Assembly (NCBI GenBank): GCA_964517765.1 | Contig: CAZFEN010000001.1 | Coordinates: forward strand, 34,345 to 98,344 | Source of the DNA: an uncultured Actinomycetota bacterium | GTDB lineage: Bacteria; Actinomycetota; Humimicrobiia; Humimicrobiales; Humimicrobiaceae | Direction: 5' to 3' | DNA length: 64,000 bases | In this document: positions 3,537 to 54,128 of the stretch, one piece after another | Layout: every line of letters starts with the position of its first letter | Numbering within the stretch: position 1 is the stretch's first letter | The notes under the pieces: model-generated | Database searches by the model: none | The model's input: only the letters and a program-made list of their open reading frames with translations | Told to the model about the DNA's origin: nothing | Translations under genes and position numbers: made by a program

Positions 3537-4214
3537 TTGTTTGATTCATTAATAGAAATAATTGGCTTTTCGGTCTGCCACCAGCTTTCTTCAAGAAGCC
3601 TTATGATTGGTAAAATTGTCCTGCCGGTTTGTGCGAGATGCAGTGGTATTTATATCGGGTTTATCATCACAGCCATTATTTTACTGGTAATGTATAGAAA
3701 AAAAGAAAATGGCCTTCCGCCTCTTTATGTCCTTGTGGTCCTTGCACTTTTTTTCCTGTCTACCCTGATCGATGGTATTGCTTCGAATTTTGGTCTATAT
3801 GAGACAAGCAATAATTTAAGATTCATAACCGGTTTTCTTTGTGGGTCATCCATTATGGTAATCATTTATCCTATCTTTACATTTCAATATTACAAACAGT
3901 CAAAACCGAAAAGAATATTCAATAGTGCGGGCGGATTTATGATTTATATCCTGACAATTACGGTATTTATTGTCATCACTCTTATCAGGTTCGATTTCAT
4001 GGGTCGTTTTTACTACTATTTTATTACATTTTCGATTCTTTTTACTTTTTATTTTATCAATATGGTACTTGTGCTACTGATCCCGCCATTTTCTCAAAAA
4101 GCGCACAGGCTTGCCAGTAAGCACTTGATCTTGCCTTCGGTTATAGCGATTGCCCTTTCGTCAATAGAATTGCTTGGCTCCTACTGGTTTCACAGGTTTA
4201 TTACGAACTTCTGA
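3537..4214 (+). CDS. DUF2085-like integral membrane protein
   Basis: 225 aa; N-terminal CHQ...RS and CARCSGIY cysteine motifs followed by multiple TM helices. Confidence 0.45.
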   Translation: MFDSLIEIIGFSVCHQLSSRSLMIGKIVLPVCARCSGIYIGFIITAIILLVMYRKKENGLPPLYVLVVLALFFLSTLIDGIASNFGLYETSNNLRFITGFLCGSSIMVIIYPIFTFQYYKQSKPKRIFNSAGGFMIYILTITVFIVITLIRFDFMGRFYYYFITFSILFTFYFINMVLVLLIPPFSQKAHRLASKHLILPSVIAIALSSIELLGSYWFHRFITNF

Positions 4215-4241
4215 TCTTCAGGCTTAAACCGGATATCCGGC

Positions 4242-4832
4242 CTAAAACAAATTTATTAATCCGTAATTATGATAGATAAAAAAGGTAGTTATGGTGGAGA
4301 TTCCCACACCGAAGATTACCTGATTGACTGTATGTTCTTTGATTCTTACTCTTGCCCAACCTATTACAGGAATAAGGGGGACCATGAGCAGCATCCATCT
4401 GCCGAATAAAATATTAAAAGTAATGACTATAAAAGTTATCCAGCTGGTATGAAGACTGATTTTCCAGAAATAGGTTATGATAGTCAAAATAACAGTAGAG
4501 ACTACGCTTACTGCAAATATGGATTTTAGGAATAAAGGAGCTCCCAGAGTATATAAAATAAGGTAACCTACTATATGACAGATACTTATTATAATTAGGG
4601 GTTTAATTCTTTCTTTCTTATTTAGAACGTGAAAATCAATTATTGTATTCCTTTTCAATAAAAAAAATATATAAAAATAAGGAATTAAAAAGCTAAACAA
4701 TAAACATATAAAAGCCCAGCTTATGGCACTTCTTATATTATCCACAACTTTAAGACAAACAATAAAGGAAACCGGGATTGAAATGAATGTACCATCAAAA
4801 ATATGTGATAATATTCTTGCAAATTTATTCAT
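4242..4832 (-). CDS. hypothetical multi-TM membrane protein
   Basis: 196-aa ORF, hydrophobic helices throughout, no recognisable motif. Confidence 0.45.
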   Translation of the reverse strand: MNKFARILSHIFDGTFISIPVSFIVCLKVVDNIRSAISWAFICLLFSFLIPYFYIFFLLKRNTIIDFHVLNKKERIKPLIIISICHIVGYLILYTLGAPLFLKSIFAVSVVSTVILTIITYFWKISLHTSWITFIVITFNILFGRWMLLMVPLIPVIGWARVRIKEHTVNQVIFGVGISTITTFFIYHNYGLINLF

Positions 4833-4971
4833 TTTTCTTCAACTTTAAAATTTTCTAATATTAATAATTTTTTATTAAATTTACAATTTAACATAATTAA
4901 TATTTAAACACTTTTAATAATTAGTAATTTTTTAAGTAATGCTAATATAATATTTCTTATTATTACATTTT

Positions 4972-5973
4972 TTACATTATACTTTTTATCCATTCAGGTA
5001 GATATTGTATACCTACCGGTATGATAGATATAATTATAATTCCAATAGTAGTCCTTATAGTTTTAAAGTTCGTAGGCCAAATATTTAAAGAATTGATTCT
5101 TTTTTTATATAGAATCAACTTATCAATCTTTTCAAACTCAATTATATTAATCTCTTCTATATTTTTATCTAAAAAACTGTTATGTTCTTTCTGTATTCGA
5201 TAGTTCATTTCATCCAAAGCTTTTTTCTTTTCTAAAAAAAGTTTCTTCCTAATTGGAATTTCAGGTATTAGAAACATACTTATCATAATGATCGCTGAGA
5301 AAGAACAATAGCCTATTATTAATTTCCCCATAGGTAGAACCTTTGCAAATATTATGCTAGTAATACAAACAGATATATATATGCTTCCTATGATTGCAAC
5401 TTCATATGCAATGTTTCTTAAAAATATTATTGATATATTTTCTCTATACCACAACCCTACTTTCACTAGTCTCCCTAATCTTATAGAATATACAAAATAA
5501 GTTATTAGGGAATATAAAGAAAAACCTGTAATGAAATTTATTGAAAATAAAAATATAGATAACAATATAAGAAGTATTTTATTACCCTCCCAAGAACCTA
5601 ATACTTTAGGAGCAAGTCCAATAAGAGATCCATAAATAACCCCTGAAATGCACATTAATTTTAAATTAAAAATTTCTTTTAAAAATCTATCTGACATATT
5701 TCTTTTTTCTTTTATTTCTTTTCCAATTAATATAAATTTAAAGAACTCAAAAGAATTTTTTAAAACGTATTTGCCAATATTCAAGAGTCCCCATAGCAAA
5801 AATGCATTTGCACAAAACAGGAGTATAATAAACGTTGAATCTTTAATGTTTTTTGTAAAAAACCATTGTAAAAAAATATAAGATAATCCAACAATTATTG
5901 GTGCAATAATTAAAATTAGATGAATAGATTTTCTATCGAAAAAAAAATTATTATAAAAAATTTTATTTTTCAT
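4972..5973 (-). CDS. hypothetical polytopic membrane protein, encoded in an AT-rich islet
   Basis: 333-aa ORF with many TM segments; local GC about 20%. Confidence 0.45.
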   Translation of the reverse strand: MKNKIFYNNFFFDRKSIHLILIIAPIIVGLSYIFLQWFFTKNIKDSTFIILLFCANAFLLWGLLNIGKYVLKNSFEFFKFILIGKEIKEKRNMSDRFLKEIFNLKLMCISGVIYGSLIGLAPKVLGSWEGNKILLILLSIFLFSINFITGFSLYSLITYFVYSIRLGRLVKVGLWYRENISIIFLRNIAYEVAIIGSIYISVCITSIIFAKVLPMGKLIIGYCSFSAIIMISMFLIPEIPIRKKLFLEKKKALDEMNYRIQKEHNSFLDKNIEEINIIEFEKIDKLILYKKRINSLNIWPTNFKTIRTTIGIIIISIIPVGIQYLPEWIKSIM

Positions 5974-6130
5974 AAAATCTCCCTATATTTTTAAGTACAT
6001 ATTATTTATATTAATTTCAATTTTAAATAAACGATAAAGATAATTCTTTATGAGTATTCTTATTTTACTTTCTAATTAGAAACACTATAAAATACATTTA
6101 AATATAGAGGATTCATTTAATTATTATTGT

Positions 6131-7078
6131 TTAACCAATATTTATAAAATCTATCAATATTTTATTAACAACTTGATGTTTTTCTTCAATACTGTCATGT
6201 CCTGCTTCATCTATAATTTCTAAACTGGAATTTTTAATATAATTATTAAATCCATAGGCAGAATCAACATTTATCCATTTATCATTTTTGCCCCAGATTA
6301 TAAGAGTAGGAATATTTATACTTTCTAAAAAAGTTTTGATATTATATCTATTAAGACCATTCATAAAACCTTTTATGATTTTTAAAAAAACTTTATTTGA
6401 ATTTTTTATTCTGAAAGGTGTCAAATAATTAACAATAATATTTTCATTAATGAATGAATTATTATAAATTAACGTTCTTAAAATTTTAATGAAATTAGAT
6501 TTTTTTACAAAGAAGTGATAATACATAACATTTATTATTTGATAATTAACAAAGGTTAGGATAAACCTAAAGCGGTTTCTAAAACCAAATCCATCAATCA
6601 GAACCAGTTTTTCAAACTTATCGGGACATAAGCCATAAGCTAATAACACTATTTCACCGCCCATTGAATGACCGATGGCCACCACTTTACCAATTTTTTT
6701 CTTAGTAATAAAATCTAATAATATTCTGGCTTGTTCTATCAATGTATAATCAGAATTTAGCATCCTTTCAGAATATCCATGGCCCTTCAAATCTAATACA
6801 TATACTTTATGATACTTTGAAAGTTCTTCAATGCCATATCTAAATGTAAATATATTTGCTCCAAGGCCATGAATGAAAATAATACTTTTACCTTTATTGC
6901 CTCTTTCTACATAATGAATATTCACTCCTCTTAATTTTATTAAGCTACCTTCTGTTTTAATTTGATTTAAATCTATATTAATAAACTTATTAACTCTAAA
7001 GACAACATAACGATAATATATAAAAATAATTATTACTATAAAACAAATTGGAAATAAATAATAAAATGTTTCTGTCAT
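6131..7078 (-). CDS. alpha/beta-hydrolase-fold protein (esterase/lipase-like) with N-terminal TM anchor
   Basis: HGLGANIFTF oxyanion region and GHSMGG nucleophile elbow; very AT-rich coding sequence. Confidence 0.65.
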   Translation of the reverse strand: MTETFYYLFPICFIVIIIFIYYRYVVFRVNKFINIDLNQIKTEGSLIKLRGVNIHYVERGNKGKSIIFIHGLGANIFTFRYGIEELSKYHKVYVLDLKGHGYSERMLNSDYTLIEQARILLDFITKKKIGKVVAIGHSMGGEIVLLAYGLCPDKFEKLVLIDGFGFRNRFRFILTFVNYQIINVMYYHFFVKKSNFIKILRTLIYNNSFINENIIVNYLTPFRIKNSNKVFLKIIKGFMNGLNRYNIKTFLESINIPTLIIWGKNDKWINVDSAYGFNNYIKNSSLEIIDEAGHDSIEEKHQVVNKILIDFINIG

Positions 7079-7181
7079 AATTTTTTCTTCTATAAGAATT
7101 TAATATTTTTAAGGTTTTTACTATAAATATTTATTTAAAAAACCGTATATACTTCTCTTGCTAGAATAATCCCTATCAAAT

Positions 7182-7215
7182 AAGAAAGACTCCTTTAACT
7201 AGGAGTCCATTATAT
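7182..7215 (-). terminator. hairpin GACTCCT-ttaact-AGGAGTC followed by a T-rich tract on the minus strand; putative terminator of the GGDEF gene
   Basis: 7-bp perfect stem seen in sequence directly downstream of the minus-strand stop at 7252. Confidence 0.35.
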
Positions 7216-7251
7216 TAAAATGAATCAATTTTTAAAACAAGTTTAAGTATA

Positions 7252-8097
7252 TTATTCCATTACTTTTTCATTGGATTTCTTGGCCAGATAGACTTTCTTA
7301 TCTGCTTCTACCATGAAATTTTTAATACTGCATCCTTCCTTATAATACTCTATACCCATACTCAGGTCTGTATTCTGGCAGTTTAATCCTAAAAACTTTT
7401 CTCTTATTCTGCATGCAATTTCCTGTGCGATTTTTCCCTCTGCCTGGTTTATTATTATTAGAAATTCGTCTCCTCCGAATCGGAAACCCAGATCGACACC
7501 TTCTCTTATGTTTTTACGGATAATGCTCCCCAGGCTTTTAAGCAGTTTATTTCCACTCTCATGACCATTATGGTCATTATATTTTTTAAAATTATCGATA
7601 TCGAACATTATAATTGCTACTTTTTCTTTTTTTCTTCTTCCCCTGCTGATTTCCTCGTTAAGCCTTCTGTCCAGATACCTGATATTATATAATCCGGTCA
7701 AATAATCGAGATATGTAGATCTTACCAGTTTCTTTTGAAGCTTCTTATATGAAGTTATGTCAGTGAGAGTAGTAACCACGTATAAAATATTTCCATCGTC
7801 ATCCCTTACGGGGGAATTACTCGCCAGTGTGTTAACTATGGTTCCATCACTTCTCAAGAATTCTATTTCATAATTTAGCGCCGTTTTGCTATTAACAATT
7901 TTTTTAAACCTTTTTCCTTTATGTTTTGGTGAAAGAATACTTAAATACCTTTTACCTACAAGCATGTTCGGATCATATCCATAATCCCTTATCTTTTCAT
8001 TTACAAAAAGGATATTGTTTTTAATGTCTTTTATTACAAATATTTCATTTGTATTCTGAAGTATTTTTTCTATATAAGGTAAAAACTTCTTTAACAT
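7252..8097 (-). CDS. PAS-GGDEF diguanylate cyclase
   Basis: 281 aa; intact GGDEF (FRFGGDEFLII) and upstream DYLTGLYN motif; N-terminal PAS-like segment. Confidence 0.75.
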   Translation of the reverse strand: MLKKFLPYIEKILQNTNEIFVIKDIKNNILFVNEKIRDYGYDPNMLVGKRYLSILSPKHKGKRFKKIVNSKTALNYEIEFLRSDGTIVNTLASNSPVRDDDGNILYVVTTLTDITSYKKLQKKLVRSTYLDYLTGLYNIRYLDRRLNEEISRGRRKKEKVAIIMFDIDNFKKYNDHNGHESGNKLLKSLGSIIRKNIREGVDLGFRFGGDEFLIIINQAEGKIAQEIACRIREKFLGLNCQNTDLSMGIEYYKEGCSIKNFMVEADKKVYLAKKSNEKVME

Positions 8098-41543: not shown

Positions 41544-42920
41544 TTGCGCTATTTCAAACTCAGGGAAAGAAATACCAGCGTCAGGACAGAAATTATTGCC
41601 GGGATCACTACTTTCATGACCATGGCTTATATAATTTTTGTCAATCCGGCTATTCTATCTCAGGGTGGTACAACAGGAATTCCTTTTGAAGCAGCAGTCA
41701 TTGCTACCTGTATGGGTGCAGGGCTGATGAGTATATTAATGGGGCTGCTTACCAATACTCCTTTTGCACTTGCCTCGGGAATGGGAATCAATGCAATAGT
41801 TGTTTTTACCATTATTTTCGGTCTGGGAATGAGCTGGCAGCAGGCAATGGGAATTATTGTCATTGAGGGAATAATCGTGACCATATTTGTATTGACGGGC
41901 CTTCGCAGCATGATAATGAGGGCAATACCAATGGGCTTAAAATATGCCATTGGGGTTGGAATCGGTCTTTTTATTGCGTTTATTGGTGCGCAGGAAGCGG
42001 GTTTTGTGGGCATTAGTCCTGCTACTGCAGTGACACTTGGAGATTTTACCGCTCATTATACCCAGCTGGCAGCTTTTGGCCTGGTGCTTACAGTGATCCT
42101 GGTTGCGTTCAGGATAAAGGGAGGAATATTACTGGGAATCGTTGGTACAGCAATTGCAGGAATGGCGTTTAGAATAATTCCTTTTCCTACAAGGTTCATA
42201 AGCGTTCCGACAAAAGAAAGTTTTGCAACCTTTTTCCAGGCAGATATTGTAGGAGCTGTGTGGAGCAAGGGGATGTTGAACGTAGCTGCGCTGGTTATGA
42301 TTTTTGCCCTGTTTATGACAGATTTTTTTGATACCATGGGTACGGTGATCGGTGTAGGCGGGGAAGCTGGTCTGCTGGATAAGGATGGCAGTCTTCCTAA
42401 TTTAAAAAGGGTTCTTCTGGTCGACTCTCTGGCAGCAGTGACAGGAGGTTTATTTGGCGCCAGCTCGATTACAACTTATATTGAAAGTGCTTCCGGCGTA
42501 TCCGATGGCGGAAGAACTGGTATCATGCCTACCATGACCGGATTTTTATTTCTGATCTCTATATTTTTTGCTCCATTGATCGCAGTGGTTGGAGGCGGTG
42601 TGGAAATAGCGGAAGGTGTCACCAAATACCCTGTCACGGCTCCGGCTTTGATTGTAGTCGGATTCTTGATGATGTCAGTTATGAGTAAAATCGATTTTAA
42701 GGATTATGAGATTGCGATACCGGCCTTTTTGACCATAATAATAATGCCTTTCACTTACAGTATTTCATACGGGATAGGATTCGGTTTTATAAGTTATACT
42801 TTAATAAAACTATTTAGAGGAAAATTTAGAGATTTACATCCACTTATGATCATAGTAAGTGCATTGTTTGCACTTGCTTTTGTTGCCGAAGCATTGGCCA
42901 AAAAGTTTGCAGGAAGTTAA
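41544..42920 (+). CDS. NCS2-family purine permease (AzgA/PbuG-like adenine/guanine/hypoxanthine transporter), TTG start
   Basis: 458 aa; N-terminus MRYFKLRERNTSVRTEIIAGITTFMTMAYIIFVNP is typical of AzgA-type permeases; RBS AAGGAGG. Confidence 0.8.
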   Translation: MRYFKLRERNTSVRTEIIAGITTFMTMAYIIFVNPAILSQGGTTGIPFEAAVIATCMGAGLMSILMGLLTNTPFALASGMGINAIVVFTIIFGLGMSWQQAMGIIVIEGIIVTIFVLTGLRSMIMRAIPMGLKYAIGVGIGLFIAFIGAQEAGFVGISPATAVTLGDFTAHYTQLAAFGLVLTVILVAFRIKGGILLGIVGTAIAGMAFRIIPFPTRFISVPTKESFATFFQADIVGAVWSKGMLNVAALVMIFALFMTDFFDTMGTVIGVGGEAGLLDKDGSLPNLKRVLLVDSLAAVTGGLFGASSITTYIESASGVSDGGRTGIMPTMTGFLFLISIFFAPLIAVVGGGVEIAEGVTKYPVTAPALIVVGFLMMSVMSKIDFKDYEIAIPAFLTIIIMPFTYSISYGIGFGFISYTLIKLFRGKFRDLHPLMIIVSALFALAFVAEALAKKFAGS

Positions 42921-43038: not shown

Positions 43039-44832
43039 ATGAAAAGAATAATTTACCACTCAATATTAATTATTTTAATTTTATTTGTACTTGCTCTTAG
43101 TGTTGGTTGTTGTCCCATATTCGAAAATATAAACAATTGGATTTCTAATGATAATAACAACGGGACCGGTAGAACCACAGACTCCGACAACACAGAAGAA
43201 ACTGCAGAGAAGAGGACAGAAAATATCCAACCCATTGCTGTATTGAAGGTATACCAGCAGAATTCCAACAGTGATTATTTTACTGTGGGCAATCCGGTAT
43301 ATTTCTCTGCTGCGGATTCATCTGATGCCAATGGCGACATTTTGAGGTTCCAATGGGAGATAGGGGATACAGTTATATCGGACGATGAAAAGGCTTCATA
43401 TATTTTTAACAGCACCGGAAAATATGAAGTAACCCTTACAGTCGATGATGGAACAAGTACAGTTGAAGCCTCAAAACAGATTTATCTGGTAGAGATTCCT
43501 GTAAATATTTCAATAAAAAGAGAGTACGAGATAACGGTTAGTATTGAATACGCTATCATAAACGAAGGGCCCGGAAACATTAAAGACATTACCTGTCTAT
43601 TCGAGATCCCTCAAACATACCAGCCTTTTCAGATTATAAAAAGCATCAAGTACAGTCAGGGTAAAACCGGGGATATTTATAGCGACGACTACAATTTATT
43701 AGAGAGATTCGATCTGGGCGATCTTGCTGCCGGAGAATCATCTATAGCATATATAAATTGTGATGCAGTGCTTTATGAATATGAATATGCACAAATATCT
43801 GATGGGGAGTATTCTTATGATCCGGAAGACAGCGATCTGTCACTTTATACGGTCAGTGAGTATTATATAAATAGCGATTCACAGCAAATAAAATCTGCGG
43901 TCAAATCTGTGACAGGAGAGGAAACGGATCCCGTAAAGATTGCAGAAAAACTCTACGATTTTGTAATTGATAAAATGGTATATGATGAGGAGAAGCTGGC
44001 TCTGGGAATATCCGATTATTTATATGCTTCGGAAATTCTGCGTAATGGCAAAGGGGTTTGTACCGACTACTCTATCTTATATACGGCTTTATGCAGAGCT
44101 GCAGGAATTCCAGCAAAATTCGTACAGGGACTTCCTATTTTTAGTATAGTCTCAGAAGGAAAAGGCGAGCTTCCATACGGCCATGCCTGGGTTGAAATAA
44201 AACTTCCCGGATACGGATGGATCCCTGTAGACATAACCGCAGAAGGTGGTTTTATGGCTTATAATTACTATCTTAACATGGAAACTTATAAGGGGTCCGG
44301 AGTATTTTATAAAAGCCTTCTAATCGAGGGAGAAGATTATTATCCCGCAGGATTTTATTATTTTTGGGAAGGAGATATTAAACCGGAAGTAAGGAGGGAG
44401 GAAGTCTACAGAGTAAGCGGACTGAATCCGGAAGATCTGAGTGTAATATCGGAAAAGGAATTTTTGGACGAAATCGGATCGGTTCTTTCCGAATATAACG
44501 CCGCTTTAATTCATATCAACCAGGCCCATTCCGAAGGCTGGAAATTCAACGATGAGCAGGAAATTGCCATAGAAGAAACTCTCCTGACAAGACTAATAGA
44601 GCTTTCACAAAAGTTGAAAAATGCTGCTTATTCGGAAAACAATGCTGTCGATAGAGGTAATCTGATTGCAATATCGGAAGAAATAATTCTTCATAAAGAA
44701 GCACAAATACATTGTATGAAAACAAGCAATCATGATTGTTCCCAGAGCGAATACAATATATTTCTCGATTCTCTGAAAAGATTGTTTGATTATTATAATA
44801 ATATGGTAGAAAATTTCAAACAGAAATATTAA
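43039..44832 (+). CDS. secreted lipoprotein with PKD domain and transglutaminase-like cysteine-protease core
   Basis: Lipobox (SVGCC); PKD-like segment (FQWEIGDT...YEVTLTVDDG); transglutaminase core (GKGVCTDYSILYTALCRAAGIPAKF ... GHAWVEI ... IPVDIT). Confidence 0.7.
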   Translation: MKRIIYHSILIILILFVLALSVGCCPIFENINNWISNDNNNGTGRTTDSDNTEETAEKRTENIQPIAVLKVYQQNSNSDYFTVGNPVYFSAADSSDANGDILRFQWEIGDTVISDDEKASYIFNSTGKYEVTLTVDDGTSTVEASKQIYLVEIPVNISIKREYEITVSIEYAIINEGPGNIKDITCLFEIPQTYQPFQIIKSIKYSQGKTGDIYSDDYNLLERFDLGDLAAGESSIAYINCDAVLYEYEYAQISDGEYSYDPEDSDLSLYTVSEYYINSDSQQIKSAVKSVTGEETDPVKIAEKLYDFVIDKMVYDEEKLALGISDYLYASEILRNGKGVCTDYSILYTALCRAAGIPAKFVQGLPIFSIVSEGKGELPYGHAWVEIKLPGYGWIPVDITAEGGFMAYNYYLNMETYKGSGVFYKSLLIEGEDYYPAGFYYFWEGDIKPEVRREEVYRVSGLNPEDLSVISEKEFLDEIGSVLSEYNAALIHINQAHSEGWKFNDEQEIAIEETLLTRLIELSQKLKNAAYSENNAVDRGNLIAISEEIILHKEAQIHCMKTSNHDCSQSEYNIFLDSLKRLFDYYNNMVENFKQKY

Positions 44833-45685: not shown

Positions 45686-46339
45686 TTAAGAGATCTCTTT
45701 TTTCATAAATATCCAGTCCCGGTATCCGGTGTACTTTCCAGCAATCCATGAGGATCTTTTTATTTGCTCGATAAAACCAATTTTTTTATACAGGTCATAA
45801 GCATTATTATTAAGACGAGCTACCCAGAGCTTTAAGACGCTTTTTCTGTTTTCTCTGGCAAAGTCTTCCACAAAAGACAGCATTTTTTTAGCAACACCCC
45901 GTCTCCTGCTTCGGGCATCAACGGCGACATTATCTATATATATGGTCTTATTATCCAATCGGGGGATTTCCTTTGATGTTAAAACGAATGCTCTAATAGC
46001 CCTTTGCAAACCCAGATTTTCAAGGTAATCCCGGAAATTTTTGGTGTGACTTTTAATATTTTCGATAGTCACAACCTCGATGATCCCTGCTATTTTACTA
46101 TCTATTATTGCATTAAAATATCTTCCCGTATTAATATTCATTGAAATTTCCGACCTGACAATATCCATAGCAGCTTTCTTTCTGTTGCTGTATATGTATT
46201 TTAGTTTTTCATAGAATGCATCGAATTCTATTCTGAGGTAATCATCAAGGTCTTCGAGCTTTAAATTGCTCAATTTGATACCGGAAAAATTGTTTTCTGG
46301 ATTCTTGCCGCTATTCATCCGGTATGTCTTTCTTATCAA
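45686..46339 (-). CDS. GNAT-family N-acetyltransferase
   Basis: Acetyl-CoA motif RRRGVAKKML. Confidence 0.7.
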   Translation of the reverse strand: MIRKTYRMNSGKNPENNFSGIKLSNLKLEDLDDYLRIEFDAFYEKLKYIYSNRKKAAMDIVRSEISMNINTGRYFNAIIDSKIAGIIEVVTIENIKSHTKNFRDYLENLGLQRAIRAFVLTSKEIPRLDNKTIYIDNVAVDARSRRRGVAKKMLSFVEDFARENRKSVLKLWVARLNNNAYDLYKKIGFIEQIKRSSWIAGKYTGYRDWIFMKKEIS

Positions 46340-46535
46340 GCAGCTCTTGAGCTTTTTTTAAATTTTTTTTATTGGTGATAAGCTTAACCCCTCTTATGCT
46401 TTGCAAAGAAGGATAATTCTGGCCGGCATCATCGGAGATTATCTCGGTTTTAATGCCAAAACTTTCCAGATAACCTCTGGCTATTTCTGCTTCTATCCTG
46501 GAGTTAAAAATTTTTACTACCGGTAATTTATCCAT
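46311..46535 (-). CDS. DUF2007-like small protein (putative signal-transducing, PII-like fold)
   Basis: 74 aa; pattern IEAEIARGYLESFGI. Confidence 0.45.
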   Translation of the reverse strand: MDKLPVVKIFNSRIEAEIARGYLESFGIKTEIISDDAGQNYPSLQSIRGVKLITNKKNLKKAQELLDKKDIPDE

Positions 46536-46779
46536 TTTTTGTCCCTTTGATTTACATTAATTATATAATTATATTCTGAATATAAATTACTTTACATGTT
46601 TGGATCATTTCAGGGATAGCAAGGATTATAACACTTTAACTGTATTTTATCATATTGGAAGGAACTTTTATTTGAAGAATTAATGTCTATGATATACACT
46701 ATTTTAAGATTCTGTTAAAAAATCCAACTATTGCTGTGGATATATTTAAGCAAACAAATATAAAATTTGGAAAAGCTTT

Positions 46780-47901
46780 ATGATTCAAAAATCACTTCTT
46801 TTAAAAATATATGAAGCTGCCAGCATGCAGAGGTGGAATGATCAGATCCGCACCATAGAACTTACGGAACTGGATAAGCAGTCTCACAAGATGGTCGTTG
46901 CTTATATTCTCGGTAGATGTGAAGAAGACATAACTCACAGAGAAATCGATTGGATTGAAATAATAGAGAATGGCCTTTTTGAATTTTTGAAAAGGATAAT
47001 TTTGACCGATTTAAAACCTCCTTTAATCTACAGGATAAAGGAAGATAAGAAACAATACGAAAAGTTAAACTACTGGGTTTTTGAGAGGATAAGATCATTT
47101 ACCGAACAGGTAAGCGAAGACTTCAATTTGCGTTTTAAAAAATATCTTCTGGAAGAGAAGGAGACCGTTGAAAGAAAAATTGTAAATGCGGCCCATTTCT
47201 ATGTGACAAAGTGGGAATTCGACATTATCAAGCGGGCAAACCCGAGGGTTTATTTAACCGAAGAGATTGTCGAAAGTATTTACAGGGAGCAGAAAAAGTA
47301 CAATGATCTTGCGTGTATGCAGTTTTTTTCTAAAAAAAGAAATTTAATGAATTTTGCGGATATATGCGGTCAGCTCCGTTTCCAGCAGAGATGGAGCCAT
47401 CTTTACCGCATTCCTAAAACCTCCGTACTGGGCCATATGTTGATTGTAGCCATATTTTCATTTTTATTTTCATGCGAAGCAAATCTAAGAAAAATAAACT
47501 GTATAAATAATTACTTCACCGGACTTTTCCATGACCTGCCCGAGGTTTTGACCAGAGATGTGATCAATCCGGTAAAAAAATCCGTTGAAGGACTTGATGA
47601 GCTTATAAAGGACTACGAAGTCGAAGAAATGGAGAAAAAAATATATAAACTGATTCCCGTAAAGTGGCAAAAAGATATAAGGATGTTTACGGAAGACGAA
47701 TTTTCCGATAAAAGTAACAGAAACGGTAAGCTGGTTAAAGGAGCGGATGATCTGGCTGCGTTTATTGAAGTCTATCTTGCACTGAAAAACGGAATAAGAA
47801 ATGAAAGCATGATCTATGCAAGGAAAAAGTTAGCCGGCAAGTATGGATCCATGAAAATAGAGGGAATAGATTTTGGAAAGATTTATGCCGGTTTCGAATA
47901 G
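46780..47901 (+). CDS. tandem HD-domain protein of the YfbR (5'-deoxynucleotidase) type; N-terminal copy degenerate, C-terminal copy intact
   Basis: C-terminal half RWSHLYRIPKTSVLGHMLIVA...FHDLPEVLTRDVINPVKK matches YfbR RW...H...HD...E..TGD..PVK; N-terminal half MQRWND...H...FEFLKRIILTDLKPP lacks HD. Confidence 0.6.
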   Translation: MIQKSLLLKIYEAASMQRWNDQIRTIELTELDKQSHKMVVAYILGRCEEDITHREIDWIEIIENGLFEFLKRIILTDLKPPLIYRIKEDKKQYEKLNYWVFERIRSFTEQVSEDFNLRFKKYLLEEKETVERKIVNAAHFYVTKWEFDIIKRANPRVYLTEEIVESIYREQKKYNDLACMQFFSKKRNLMNFADICGQLRFQQRWSHLYRIPKTSVLGHMLIVAIFSFLFSCEANLRKINCINNYFTGLFHDLPEVLTRDVINPVKKSVEGLDELIKDYEVEEMEKKIYKLIPVKWQKDIRMFTEDEFSDKSNRNGKLVKGADDLAAFIEVYLALKNGIRNESMIYARKKLAGKYGSMKIEGIDFGKIYAGFE

Positions 47902-47913
47902 CCGGTTAATTCT

Positions 47914-49407
47914 ATGGGGAAAATAATAATATCAAAATCAAAATATCTGGCAGGACTTCAGTGCTTAAAGTATTTTTGGTTCCTCATCAATGCCAAAGAA
48001 GAAGTCCCGCAGCCGGATTTCGTGAACAGGTTTATTTTTAATCAGGGAACCCTGGTGGGGGAATATGCAAAAAAACTATATCCAGACGGAATCGATCTGG
48101 GGAAGATAGGTGATTTAAAGGAGCAGCTGGTAAGGACCTTCGAGTTACTTTCCGAGAGAAGACCTCTGTTCGAAGCAAGCGTAAGCTCTGGAAATGTTTA
48201 CAGCAGAGCGGATATCCTTGTCCCGGTAAATACCGACAGCTGGGATATTGTAGAAGTTAAAAGCTCCACTCAGCTCAAGGAGGAATATATACCTGACGTT
48301 GCTTTTCAGAAGTACTGTTTTGAAAAAGCCGGGATCAATATCCGGAAATGCTATCTGGCATACATTAATAATCAGTATATAAAAAAAGGGGATATCGATT
48401 CGTCGAGACTATTTAAAAAAGTGGATATTACAGCGCAAGTGGATGAGACGCTGGGAGAGATAGGGAACAGGGTCCGGGAAATGCTCGAGATCGCTGCTGC
48501 AAAGAGTCCACCGGAAATAATTATTGGTAAACAATGCAGTAATCCCTACATATGTCCGCTTAAGGATAGATGCTGGAAATTCTTGCCGGACAACAATATT
48601 TTTAATTTATATGGAAATAAAGACAAAGCAATTGAATTGTACAGCGAAGGAATTCTTTCAATAAAAGACATACCTGACCGGTATGATTTAAATTTAAAAC
48701 AACAAATACAACTCGAGTGTGCAAGAACAGAAAAAACGAAAATAGACAAAGATGAAATATCGAAATTTATAAAAAAGTTTGAATACCCATTATATTTTTT
48801 TGATTTTGAGACATTCTCTACAGCTATTCCCCTGTATGATGGCCTCAAACCATATCAGAGAATTCCATTTCAGTATTCCATACATGTTCTGGAGTCTATC
48901 GATGGTAAAGCCGAACACCGTGATTTTCTTGCCAGAGGCCTGGAAGATCCGAGGGAAAGATTGCTGTCAGATTTAAAGCAGCACCTGGATGATAAGGGCA
49001 GCGTGGTTGTCTATTATGAATTATTTGAAAAAAGTGTCTTGAGAGAGCTGGCCGAAGCTTTTCCCGGATACCGGAAGTGGGTCGATTCTATAACACACAG
49101 GATAATTGATCTTTATAAGCCTTTTGGAAATTTTCACTATTATAATTCTTCCCAGAAAGGAAGTGCTTCGGTAAAAAGTGTCCTCCCGGCAATAACCGAT
49201 TTAAGTTACAATGGAATGGAAATAGGAAACGGCCTCGCTGCAAGTGTATACTTCCTTTATATTTGCGGAAGGTATAATGCAAGGGAGAGCTGTCCCGCAG
49301 AGGCAGAGGTAGAAAGGATCCGTAAATTACTAATAAAATACTGCAGGCTGGATACCGGGGGCATGATTCATATACTAAGGGGACTGATAAAAGAAACTGA
49401 GAAGTAG
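47914..49407 (+). CDS. DUF2779-type PD-(D/E)xK (RecB/Cas4-like) nuclease with cysteine cluster
   Basis: N-terminus SKSKYLAGLQCLKYFW; nuclease core DIVEVKSST; C-terminal CSNPYICPLKDRC; 12 nt after the HD gene. Confidence 0.6.
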   Translation: MGKIIISKSKYLAGLQCLKYFWFLINAKEEVPQPDFVNRFIFNQGTLVGEYAKKLYPDGIDLGKIGDLKEQLVRTFELLSERRPLFEASVSSGNVYSRADILVPVNTDSWDIVEVKSSTQLKEEYIPDVAFQKYCFEKAGINIRKCYLAYINNQYIKKGDIDSSRLFKKVDITAQVDETLGEIGNRVREMLEIAAAKSPPEIIIGKQCSNPYICPLKDRCWKFLPDNNIFNLYGNKDKAIELYSEGILSIKDIPDRYDLNLKQQIQLECARTEKTKIDKDEISKFIKKFEYPLYFFDFETFSTAIPLYDGLKPYQRIPFQYSIHVLESIDGKAEHRDFLARGLEDPRERLLSDLKQHLDDKGSVVVYYELFEKSVLRELAEAFPGYRKWVDSITHRIIDLYKPFGNFHYYNSSQKGSASVKSVLPAITDLSYNGMEIGNGLAASVYFLYICGRYNARESCPAEAEVERIRKLLIKYCRLDTGGMIHILRGLIKETEK

Positions 49408-52007: not shown

Positions 52008-54128
52008 TTATTTAGCAGAGTTCTTCCCTTTGATAATCTCAAAAAATTTTTCTATAAGATATGGATCAAATTGAGTACCCGCACATCTTTCTAATTCCTT
52101 TAGTGCCTCTTCTTTGGATATACCCTTACTATAGGGTCTATCACTTATCATGGCATCATAGGCATCGGTAATTGCGAGAATCCTGGATATAATTGGAATT
52201 TTGCCGCCTTTCAGACCACCTGGATACCCGGAACCGTCCCACCTTTCATGATGGTATAATATCCCGGGCGCTATTTGTGCCAGATCGGGTGATGATTCGA
52301 CTATACGGTAACCGATCTCTGAATGTTTTTTCATTACTTCCCATTCTTCGGGGGTCAGTTTACCGGGTTTTAAAACTATATTATCGGGTATGGAAATCTT
52401 ACCAATATCATGAAGCATTGCCAGTAGCTTTAATTTGTTAAGCTCAATAATATCCAGATTTATTTTTTTACCCAGTAACACACTTAATCTTATCAATCTT
52501 TCCGCATGTTCTTTTGTTTCGTAATCTCTTTCTTCCAATACTTTTTTTAGGGATAAAATCAATGTACTTCGCATACTTTTACCTTCGGATAATTTATATT
52601 CAAACATTGTATTTTCGGCTTCTTTTACCACATCATTGATGTTTTGATCGCTGCTTTTTTTTAACGAGAACCCAAAAGTTACATTCAGGGGCATGATAGT
52701 AGTGCTACTTTTTTTACAATCCCTTAACATTTTACTTATTATCTTTAAAGCATCTGCCTTTTCTGTTTTTTGTAGTATTATTGCAAATTCATCTCCCCCG
52801 TAACGACACAAAGCACCCTTATCATGCAGGCTGTGCTTTAAAATTCTGGCTGTTTTTTTTATCAATTCATCTCCTTTTGCCCGTCCAAATGTATCATTTA
52901 TTATTTTCAGGCCATTTATATCTCCGAGAATAATACAAATTGGAAGCTGTTTCTTTTTGTCTACTCTCATCAATTCTTCTTCAAAGAAATACTGGTTGAA
53001 AATATTCGTCAACCGGTCGTGATAAGATTGATAGTATAGTTGTTTTTCTTTTTCTTTTCTGATAGTTATATCATTCATAATCAATAGTTTTCCCATGGTT
53101 TTCCTGTAATAATTAAAAACAGTTGATGCTCTGGCATTATAATATCTGACATGCTTATTGATTATTAATTCGATATCACTTTCAAAATTTTTGATTTTAA
53201 AGTTTAACAAAGAATCCAAAAGTTTTTTTAATTTCTCTTTTTCAGGCGTTAGATAAGAAAGTTTGCTTACTACGCAATTAATGTCTTTTTTTCTTGTTTT
53301 ATCATATTTACAACCTTCCTCGATGATGTCATCAGCCAGATTATTCTGCTCAACGACCCGACCATCATTATTGAATAAAAAAATCGCATCACCGATATTA
53401 CTCATTATTTTCCCTTTTAAAGTCATTATAAAGTTGGAATAAACAAGAAATAAACTGAAAGAAATGAAACCATATAGAAAGATAATGGCCAATTCGCTTA
53501 AAGGCATTATTTTTAGTATAGCAAGTTCCATCAGTACCTGTATTATCGAAGTTCCGATAAAATAAACCAGAAGTCCTGTAAACAAGTAATACATTTGCTG
53601 ATTGGTCTGCCTGATTCTGAATTTACGATACATGTTCTTGCCCGTCAAAAACAAGGTGCCAAGACCGATAGGCGCTATATAAAAAGCACCTATATATTTA
53701 AAAAAAGGTGAATATATAATGTATCCATAAAAAACACTTTTAGTACCGATTTGATCATATACCAGAAGAAGTATAAATATTACCACGGCTGTGAGATATG
53801 CTGCCACGAGTTGGACATAGACCCTGTATTTTTTGTAGTCTTCGATCTGTGTGAATCTTATTACCAGATGAAGAACAATTGCGGGAATTAAAAGAGTAGT
53901 CAGGGTCAATATTCTCGCAGATAAAATTAAAAGGTTTATTGCGGAAAAGCCCCAGAGCAGTATTATATTAAAGATAGAAAAAACAAAAACATTGACTGAT
54001 AGTATAATAAAAGGAACATTGTTTTTCTTTATGGTTTCTCTGCTGGCAATCATAAATACTGAGATCGGAATAAATACCAAACTTAATGCCGACATAGAAA
54101 CAGTTAACGCCCAGACTATTTTTTCCAT
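52008..54128 (-). CDS. polytopic membrane sensor with GGDEF and canonical HD-GYP domains
   Basis: 706 aa; about 7 N-terminal TM helices; GGDEF (RYGGDEFAIIL); HD-GYP (LHDIGK, HHERWDGSGYPGG). Confidence 0.8.
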   Translation of the reverse strand: MEKIVWALTVSMSALSLVFIPISVFMIASRETIKKNNVPFIILSVNVFVFSIFNIILLWGFSAINLLILSARILTLTTLLIPAIVLHLVIRFTQIEDYKKYRVYVQLVAAYLTAVVIFILLLVYDQIGTKSVFYGYIIYSPFFKYIGAFYIAPIGLGTLFLTGKNMYRKFRIRQTNQQMYYLFTGLLVYFIGTSIIQVLMELAILKIMPLSELAIIFLYGFISFSLFLVYSNFIMTLKGKIMSNIGDAIFLFNNDGRVVEQNNLADDIIEEGCKYDKTRKKDINCVVSKLSYLTPEKEKLKKLLDSLLNFKIKNFESDIELIINKHVRYYNARASTVFNYYRKTMGKLLIMNDITIRKEKEKQLYYQSYHDRLTNIFNQYFFEEELMRVDKKKQLPICIILGDINGLKIINDTFGRAKGDELIKKTARILKHSLHDKGALCRYGGDEFAIILQKTEKADALKIISKMLRDCKKSSTTIMPLNVTFGFSLKKSSDQNINDVVKEAENTMFEYKLSEGKSMRSTLILSLKKVLEERDYETKEHAERLIRLSVLLGKKINLDIIELNKLKLLAMLHDIGKISIPDNIVLKPGKLTPEEWEVMKKHSEIGYRIVESSPDLAQIAPGILYHHERWDGSGYPGGLKGGKIPIISRILAITDAYDAMISDRPYSKGISKEEALKELERCAGTQFDPYLIEKFFEIIKGKNSAK

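Follow-up and report, generated by a model that had tools for sequence, protein, structure and literature searches.

The closest described relative of the first gene considered here is YfbR of Escherichia coli (structures 2paq, 2par and 2pau), a dimeric 5'-nucleotidase specific for deoxynucleoside monophosphates (dNMPs) in which R18, W19 and D77 confer the deoxyribose specificity (PMC8177086). This gene, termed A, and its neighbour B occupy positions 46780 to 49407 of a stretch of 64,000 nucleotides (nt) from an uncultured Actinomycetota bacterium of the family Humimicrobiaceae (contig CAZFEN010000001.1 of assembly GCA_964517765.1), the whole of which is referred to as the window. Gene A (46780..47901, + strand) encodes a tandem YfbR-type HD protein of 373 amino acids (aa), and gene B (47914..49407, + strand) encodes a predicted fusion of a Cas4-like and a DEDD-type nuclease of 497 aa. 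The fold, the H...HD...D site, the catalytic Glu and the R-W...D residues of YfbR and of other PF12917 proteins (OxsA, Lin2634, HDDC2 and YGK1) are common to the C-terminal domain of A. YfbR has about 200 aa, whereas A is one chain of two domains with ~373-400 aa, the N-terminal one being without metal ligands in every member of the family. The pair is tentatively read, with a probability of about 0.4, as a co-expressed route by which DNA would be turned over to dNMPs and these to deoxynucleosides.

The two-domain plan and the catalytic residues of B are shared with the DUF2779 (PF11074) proteins, among them MMSYN1_0389 of JCVI-syn3.0, Mbov_0804 and the UU173 family. B is shorter than these proteins (497 compared to ~650 aa) and contains all four cysteines of the cluster described below, compared to two in the mycoplasma protein. 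The fold of Cas4 and solo Cas4 (SSO0001, 4ic1; 8d3l and 7mi4), their D...ExK...Q motifs and a cysteine cluster bridging the domain termini are also found in B, which differs in its C-x5-C-x5-C spacing and in having an extra DEDD exonuclease domain; neither cas1, cas2 nor a CRISPR array was found near B in the window. The RecB-like nucleases of the TM0106 family (TIGR03491) are analogous to B in joining a PD-(D/E)xK nuclease to an RNase H-like exonuclease (PMC3985635). Their exonuclease domain belongs to RNase_H_2 (PF13482), whereas that of B belongs to PF11074. Defence enzymes that deplete nucleotides include SAMHD1-like dGTPases and dCTP deaminases, and the likeness to A lies in HD-superfamily phosphohydrolases that act on deoxynucleotides. 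In contrast to these enzymes A is of the YfbR class and has no match in PADLOC, and its locus lies outside a defence island. Nucleotide depletion coupled to a nuclease is also among the ideas put forward for this locus in an earlier, sequence-only reading.

Genes A and B were the dominant open reading frames (ORFs) of the region, and the N-termini of both aligned with those of their homologues from residue 1. As the sequence-only reading had described, the two lie on the same strand and are separated by 12 nt (47902..47913, + strand; ccggttaattct). Gene A is preceded by an AT-rich spacer of 244 nt, a divergent ORF of 74 aa and then a GNAT gene, and 18 nt past the stop codon of B lies the end of a convergently oriented pair of genes for an ABC-2 permease and an ABC ATPase. 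Because of this divergent ORF upstream and convergent gene pair downstream, A and B form a two-gene unit on one strand, which is probably co-transcribed. The spacer contained neither a terminator-like nor a convincing promoter-like site, and the gap between the genes was ~10-76 nt across related loci. The same arrangement with identical proteins was found on several JGI (Joint Genome Institute) metagenome contigs, and the closest named relatives were metagenome-assembled genomes (MAGs) of Actinomycetota, Candidatus Hydromicrobium and Humimicrobiaceae. The unit is chromosomal and belongs to an Actinomycetota bacterium close to Candidatus Hydromicrobium.

The conservation of the pairing was examined by a scan with an alignment of A, using one genome per GTDB species, which gave 279 relatives of which the best 80 loci were examined. 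B was located directly after A, or at most four genes away, in 38 of these 80 loci, and was present in 31 of the 60 with at least 1.7 kb of sequence downstream. All 38 loci with the pair fell into two clades of Actinomycetota, both uncultured (Humimicrobiia / Hydromicrobium-like MAGs). Of the 29 loci that had this much sequence downstream and an identity to A of at least 64%, 25 contained B. Between 50 and 64% identity six more loci contained B, and there the synteny of the window was lost (upstream partner 0/38, downstream partner 0/6). The adjacency of A and B outlasts the flanking synteny within the two clades. The trees of A and B shared the same two linked clades, indicating co-inheritance of the pair; B has diverged to 34-44% identity across these deep clades while keeping its partner. 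The expectation that the two genes would be conserved as neighbours in other genomes was borne out for these Actinomycetota and for none of the other lineages sampled. The sequence-only reading had allowed that it would fall if the genes were not neighbours elsewhere, and because each gene lives alone outside the lineage, half of this objection applies.

Two variations of the arrangement were observed. In one subclade (loci L033-L035, L051 and L058) a gene for an HDIG-type HD phosphohydrolase of 171 aa (c24) lies between A and B, placing three genes for hydrolases of nucleotides or nucleic acids in a row and leaving the unit unbroken. Four loci at an A identity of at least 64% were without B; in one of these (L025:7242-8729) a transposase-like ORF of 495 aa stands in the place of B after A, with the contig ending soon after, and B could have been moved elsewhere instead of being lost.

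The assignment of A to the YfbR class was supported at several levels. The Pfam model YfbR-like (PF12917) matched over two stretches with 94.9 bits (threshold 25.9, E=6e-27), and HD_3 (PF13023) matched with 90.7 bits (threshold 22.5). When compared with the PDB sequences using phmmer, the C-terminal half matched YfbR (2paq, 2e-6) and OxsA (5tk6), and the N-terminal half (residues 34-186) matched the HD protein Lin2634 (3mzo, 7e-4). Alignment of the C-terminal domain with a YfbR fragment in hhalign gave a probability of 95%. The AlphaFold2 (AF2) model of A was all-helical and formed a single compact body of two domains, with a predicted local distance difference test score (pLDDT) of 86.7 and a predicted template modelling score (pTM) of 0.91. 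The best Foldseek matches to this model were YfbR, Lin2634, OxsA, DatZ and HDDC2, and the match to SAMHD1 was poor (probability at most 0.44, TM ~0.2). Comparison of the two halves of A with each other gave E=0.002 in BLASTP. A profile-profile comparison of the two domains, based on a family alignment of 127 sequences, gave a probability of 92% and E=6.7e-7 over 163 columns, so that the internal duplication, which had already been claimed from the sequence, is real. With a shallow alignment of 18 sequences (effective number of sequences, Neff, ~2), hhalign had linked the N-terminal domain neither to YfbR nor to the C-terminal domain, and the link was seen after 109 diverse representatives had been added. 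The family is small, comprising 169 clusters at 50% identity (E<=1e-30).

The C-terminal domain of A (aa 187-373 plus the stop codon; 47338..47901, + strand) was identified by Pfam, phmmer, hhalign and Foldseek as a YfbR-type HD domain of the catalytic kind. The sequence-only reading had stated that this copy keeps its catalytic motifs, and R204-W205, H219, H251-D252, E255, T258-R259-D260, P264-V-K266 and D323 were each present in at least 123 of the 127 sequences. The metal ligands H219 (127/127), H251 (126/127), D252 (126/127) and D323 (123/127) give the H...HD...D motif of the HD superfamily. The deoxyribose-specificity set of YfbR, the equivalents of R18, W19, D77 and E72, is complete in this domain, where R204, W205, D260 and E255 were conserved in at least 125 of the 127 sequences.

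The N-terminal domain (aa 1-186; 46780..47337, + strand) has the YfbR-type fold without the metal ligands. When the two domains of A were aligned, R18-W19 corresponded to R204-W205, E68-F69 to H251-D252, R72 to E255, D77 to D260 and H139 to D323. The H...HD...D motif is consequently absent (H36, E68-F69 and H139 stand at its positions), and the metal site is gone in all members of the family. The sequence-only reading had called this copy dead, with FE in place of HD. The loss of the ligands was confirmed, but the residues are E68-F69 (LF-EF compared to LF-HD), hence EF and not FE, and the domain has not decayed: R18, W19, D77 and E146 were invariant across the 127 sequences and were kept in an orthologue from Helicobacter pylori (39% identity) that was aligned separately. 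Of these, R18, W19 and D77 correspond to the deoxyribose-recognition triad of YfbR, and position 72 is Arg or Lys where YfbR has Glu (E72). The idea that the N-terminal domain is more conserved than the C-terminal one was dropped, as the mean top-residue frequency over the 127 sequences was 0.448 compared to 0.506. Because YfbR is a homodimer, A is most simply read as a fused pseudo-dimer in which one half would be catalytic and the other non-catalytic yet ligand-binding. The universally conserved pseudo-HD domain of A is the most distinctive single feature of the locus. A search of the literature for the tandem YfbR-like family, for operons of HD and Cas4 genes and for the Helicobacter orthologue found nothing relevant.

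In B the DUF2779 model (PF11074) scored 140.9 bits (threshold 23.3) over aa 294-419, and Cas_Cas4 (PF01930) scored 27.8 bits (threshold 22.7) over aa 98-221. DUF2779 had been placed at the N-terminus of the protein; the family assignment stands, but the match covers the C-terminal domain, and the N-terminal stretch SKSKYLAGLQC belongs to the Cas4-like domain, being the source of its first cysteine. In this PD-(D/E)xK nuclease domain (aa 1-225; 47914..48588, + strand) D100, E114-x-K116 and Q132 were invariant among 26 homologues. C208, C214 and C220 (C208-x5-C214-x5-C220) were also invariant and C17 nearly so; the nuclease core and a cysteine triad had been recognised before, and the cluster consists of four cysteines with C17 included. 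Both the PD-(D/E)xK motifs and the four-cysteine cluster that mark Cas4 are present, and the four cysteines constitute a putative iron-sulfur (Fe-S) site. The C-terminal domain (aa ~286-497 plus the stop codon; 48769..49407, + strand), which contains the DUF2779 region, is predicted to be a DEDD-type (DEDDy-like) 3'-5' exonuclease. D297 and E299 (Exo I), E372 (Exo II position) and Y476 and D480 (Exo III) were invariant in the same homologues, and the domain shows the marks of this class, namely four acidic residues in Exo I-III, a Tyr preceding the final Asp and an RNase H-like fold. As judged from the sequence, both catalytic sets of B are intact. The AF2 model of B had a pLDDT of 90.4, and one half of it matched Cas4 structures, AdnAB nuclease domains, Exo5 and Dna2.

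We know of no DUF2779 protein that has been characterised biochemically. The scores of B fell below the curated cut-offs for cas4 (TIGR00372, 12.1 compared to 65), TM0106 (TIGR03491, 19.6 compared to 97.45) and UU173 (NF045869, 45.9 compared to 225). The domain assignments of the sequence-only reading were essentially right; PF11074, YfbR-like and HD_3 all scored above their thresholds, and the cut-offs of the YfbR equivalog and of cas4 were missed. A combination of Cas4-like and exonuclease domains such as that of B had already been predicted (PMC3985635, PMC13621843).

In the proposed route of DNA turnover, B would act on DNA ends or on single-stranded DNA and digest them from both polarities into 5'-dNMPs, and the C-terminal domain of A would dephosphorylate the released dNMPs to deoxynucleosides and phosphate. 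The N-terminal domain would act as a non-catalytic deoxynucleotide-binding or structural partner, standing in for the second subunit of YfbR. A and B would together be a housekeeping route for DNA turnover, pool clearing or salvage that has been fixed as an operon in the lineage, not a mobile defence module. Cas4- and DEDD-class exonucleases release 5'-mononucleotides. The salvage or degradation reading fits the chemistry, in that the 5'-dNMPs set free by such exonucleases are what YfbR-type enzymes hydrolyse.

A number of observations weigh against this route. B was not found within 6 kb of A in any of ~40 loci from Omnitrophota, Planctomycetia / Scalindua or other lineages, and an ORF of the A family was absent from all 83 loci with relatives of B at ~50% identity (three contigs and 80 metagenome loci), so that the coupling is not general beyond the two clades. 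No fusion of A and B (~870 aa) was present among the 150 best representatives of the A family. Conservation inside one lineage can reflect inheritance and not function, and no obvious Shine-Dalgarno sequence was found ahead of B. The score of A against the YfbR equivalog NF003009 was 61.4 bits with a cut-off of 122, and because this cut-off was missed A is a relative of YfbR and not its orthologue; the substrate of A could be a dNMP, a deoxynucleoside diphosphate (dNDP) or a deoxynucleoside triphosphate (dNTP). The defence-like, variable and plasmid settings of the relatives of B, described below, fit a role in defence or with mobile DNA better than a housekeeping one.

The adjacency could instead be an operon of convenience, in which A is a stand-alone enzyme of the deoxynucleotide pool, B is a solo-Cas4-like nuclease of repair or processing and their arrangement was simply inherited. 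This explanation is possible and nearly as likely as coupled turnover. In all sampled lineages outside the two clades each gene was found without the other, the fusions sought among the representatives of A were absent, and some clades of Actinomycetota have A without B (L029, L032, L036, L054 and L067). Much of the signal for the pair also came from close relatives in which the wider synteny c3-c4-c5-c2-A-B-c9-c6 is kept. Simple inheritance accounts less well for the persistence of the adjacency where the flanking synteny has all decayed, for the retention of the pair in two deep clades despite the 34-44% identity of B, and for the inserted gene c24, which also encodes a phosphohydrolase and leaves the orientation of the unit unchanged. 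A separate question, which partly overlaps the other explanations, is whether A is a mononucleotidase. It could act on deoxynucleoside tri- or diphosphates or on a modified or non-canonical nucleotide, as OxsA or DatZ would suggest, with the pseudo-domain as an allosteric sensor and the link to B being the sanitation of a damaged pool during repair. OxsA, which removes phosphate from tri-, di- and monophosphates, came close behind YfbR in the sequence and fold matches, as did DatZ, and the score of A lies under the equivalog cut-off. A second pocket for nucleotides is suggested by R18, W19, D77 and E146, which are invariant although their domain lacks the metal. The catalytic domain of A nevertheless has the exact substrate triad of YfbR together with the glutamate, and no triphosphate-binding extension was indicated in its sequence; such a substrate is rather unlikely.

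An anti-phage function had been suggested by the sequence-only reading, and in a two-gene system of this kind B would degrade invading or host DNA and A would remove deoxynucleotides, or deplete the dNTP or dNMP pools, against their reuse by the phage. The relatives of B lend this some colour. At ~50% identity their neighbourhoods were highly variable and rich in defence-type genes, and 150 neighbours included GmrSD_N (7), REase-ARP (4), PDDEXK_4 (4), RNase_H_2 (4), YgjP-like (3) and type IIG restriction-modification genes, with PADLOC matches to HEC-05, PDC-S26 and LmuA. Homologues of B at 33-37% identity were found on 33 plasmids, in settings that include PAPS-reductase / helicase / ATPase / DUF2779 / phospholipase D and a PD-(D/E)xK / DUF2779 / WYL arrangement. 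The phage enzyme DatZ is of the same structural class of HD phosphohydrolases as A, and the family of B was treated under 'immunity connections' in a 2026 paper. At the locus itself the evidence points the other way. PADLOC v2 gave no match to A and weak matches to B with Cas4 models only, and the ten neighbours in the window gave only generic protease and ABC-ATPase cross-hits. As had been noted earlier, neither cas nor defence genes adjoin the pair. The flanks in the window (GNAT, ABC-2 transporter, hydrolase and permease genes) are in stable synteny, and the locus is near-universal in its clade with surroundings that are neither defence-related nor mobile. Among 92 genes flanking the A-B pairs were GNAT, ABC-2 transporter, transglutaminase-like, aldo-keto reductase and PIN genes, with PADLOC matches limited to ATPase and protease cross-hits and to the candidate family PDC-S01 in one neighbour. 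Residence in a defence island was therefore not observed for this locus and its lineage, and was observed for relatives of B elsewhere and on plasmids. A is highly conserved, with ~60% identity between phyla and 39% to the Helicobacter pylori orthologue, which has the same pseudo-domain. In other phyla its neighbours are of a metabolic or housekeeping type and comprise MarR / TolC / RND, MTHFR, aldolase, PPIase and PilZ genes. It resembles YfbR and not the SAMHD1/dGTPase-type dNTPases known from defence, and no homologue of B was found in 50,697 phage records. The anti-phage reading is thus weakly supported for this locus and appears rather improbable. A variant in which A and B form a chromosomally fixed module of immunity or DNA surveillance is a long shot. 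In such a module the attack of B on foreign or damaged DNA would release dNMPs, and the N-terminal domain would sense these and gate the catalytic domain, possibly also B, so that deoxynucleotides are removed; if true, this would be a nuclease-coupled nucleotide depletion, a mechanism not yet described.

In the lineage of the window B behaves as a core, fixed gene beside a slowly evolving A of housekeeping type. The literature on the B family offers hints of a housekeeping role: its member in JCVI-syn3.0 is quasi-essential (PMC13621843), and a screen in M. bovis whose other hits included nanoRNase and DNA-replication genes yielded a transposon mutant of the family with a growth deficiency in cell culture (PMC7373297). 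As defence-like and quasi-essential settings both occur, the family of B spans accessory and core contexts.

Several further observations were made on the homologues of the two proteins. On the Planktothrix agardhii plasmid NZ_LR882954.1 (L167, 1-8458) a co-directional operon of PAPS-reductase / hypothetical / hypothetical / DEAD helicase / ATPase / DUF2779 / phospholipase-D genes was found, which looks like an undescribed defence-type system. In the phage database A was represented by only two Helicobacter 'phage' records, outside the integrase. One of these, Helicobacter phage Pt11444_1 (4959-6835), contains a full-length tandem-HD orthologue of 39% identity and a Fic gene at the end of the record, both of which are probably host flank. 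A MAG labelled as a Methanosarcinales archaeon (L059) contained a homologue of A in the MarR / TolC / RND / A neighbourhood typical of Planctomycetia and Omnitrophota MAGs, which suggests mis-binning of the contig or a recent transfer. Matches of neighbouring genes to the PADLOC models mad3, mad8 and AriA were put down to ABC-ATPase cross-hits and discarded, since all nine proteins concerned are ABC_tran.

Within the 244-nt region 5' of gene A a single block (46663..46705, + strand; aacttttatTTGAAGaattaatgtctatgatatacactatttt) was conserved at >=70-90% in an alignment of the upstream regions of related loci. A weak sigma-70-like match lies near this block, which is probably a promoter region shared with or adjoining the divergent 74-aa gene. 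A search with Rfam revealed neither riboswitches nor any further RNA elements in the region 5' of A or in the window as a whole, and the window contained no tRNA, CRISPR array or tandem array. No LexA- or NrdR-like palindromes were seen in the upstream block by eye, no formal motif search having been made. The divergent 74-aa ORF (46311..46535, - strand) was conserved in 29 related loci and had no Pfam or NCBIfam match.

Further upstream an NCS2 (xanthine/uracil-type) nucleobase permease (41544..42920, + strand) lies a few genes from the pair and is syntenic in 17 related loci, which could be a weak link to nucleotide salvage or plain synteny. A PKD and transglutaminase-like protein of 597 aa (43039..44832, + strand) is also encoded upstream of the pair in the window, whereas in the divergent A-B clade (L041, L075, L078 and L079) its family is represented by one or two genes directly downstream of B. 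On the other side a multi-pass membrane protein of 706 aa (52008..54128, - strand) contains a GGDEF diguanylate cyclase domain and an HD-GYP-type HD_5 domain. The G+C fraction of the window was 0.27 at 4001..8000, compared to ~0.35-0.39 elsewhere.

The families of A and B are both known, and to our knowledge neither of these widespread families has been characterised biochemically. Their pairing is a lineage-specific version of a familiar logic of nuclease and nucleotidase; it is only moderately unusual and would not greatly surprise a specialist. The tandem-HD family, including the Helicobacter pylori orthologue, would be a clear example of a fused pseudo-dimer that has one dead active site whose ligand pocket has nevertheless stayed invariant. 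The conserved operon gives a first testable hypothesis for both families, in which DNA is converted to dNMPs and these to deoxynucleosides. If the coupling is real it would be the first physiological role for DUF2779 proteins, and if it is not, A and B would be an ordinary lineage-specific operon.

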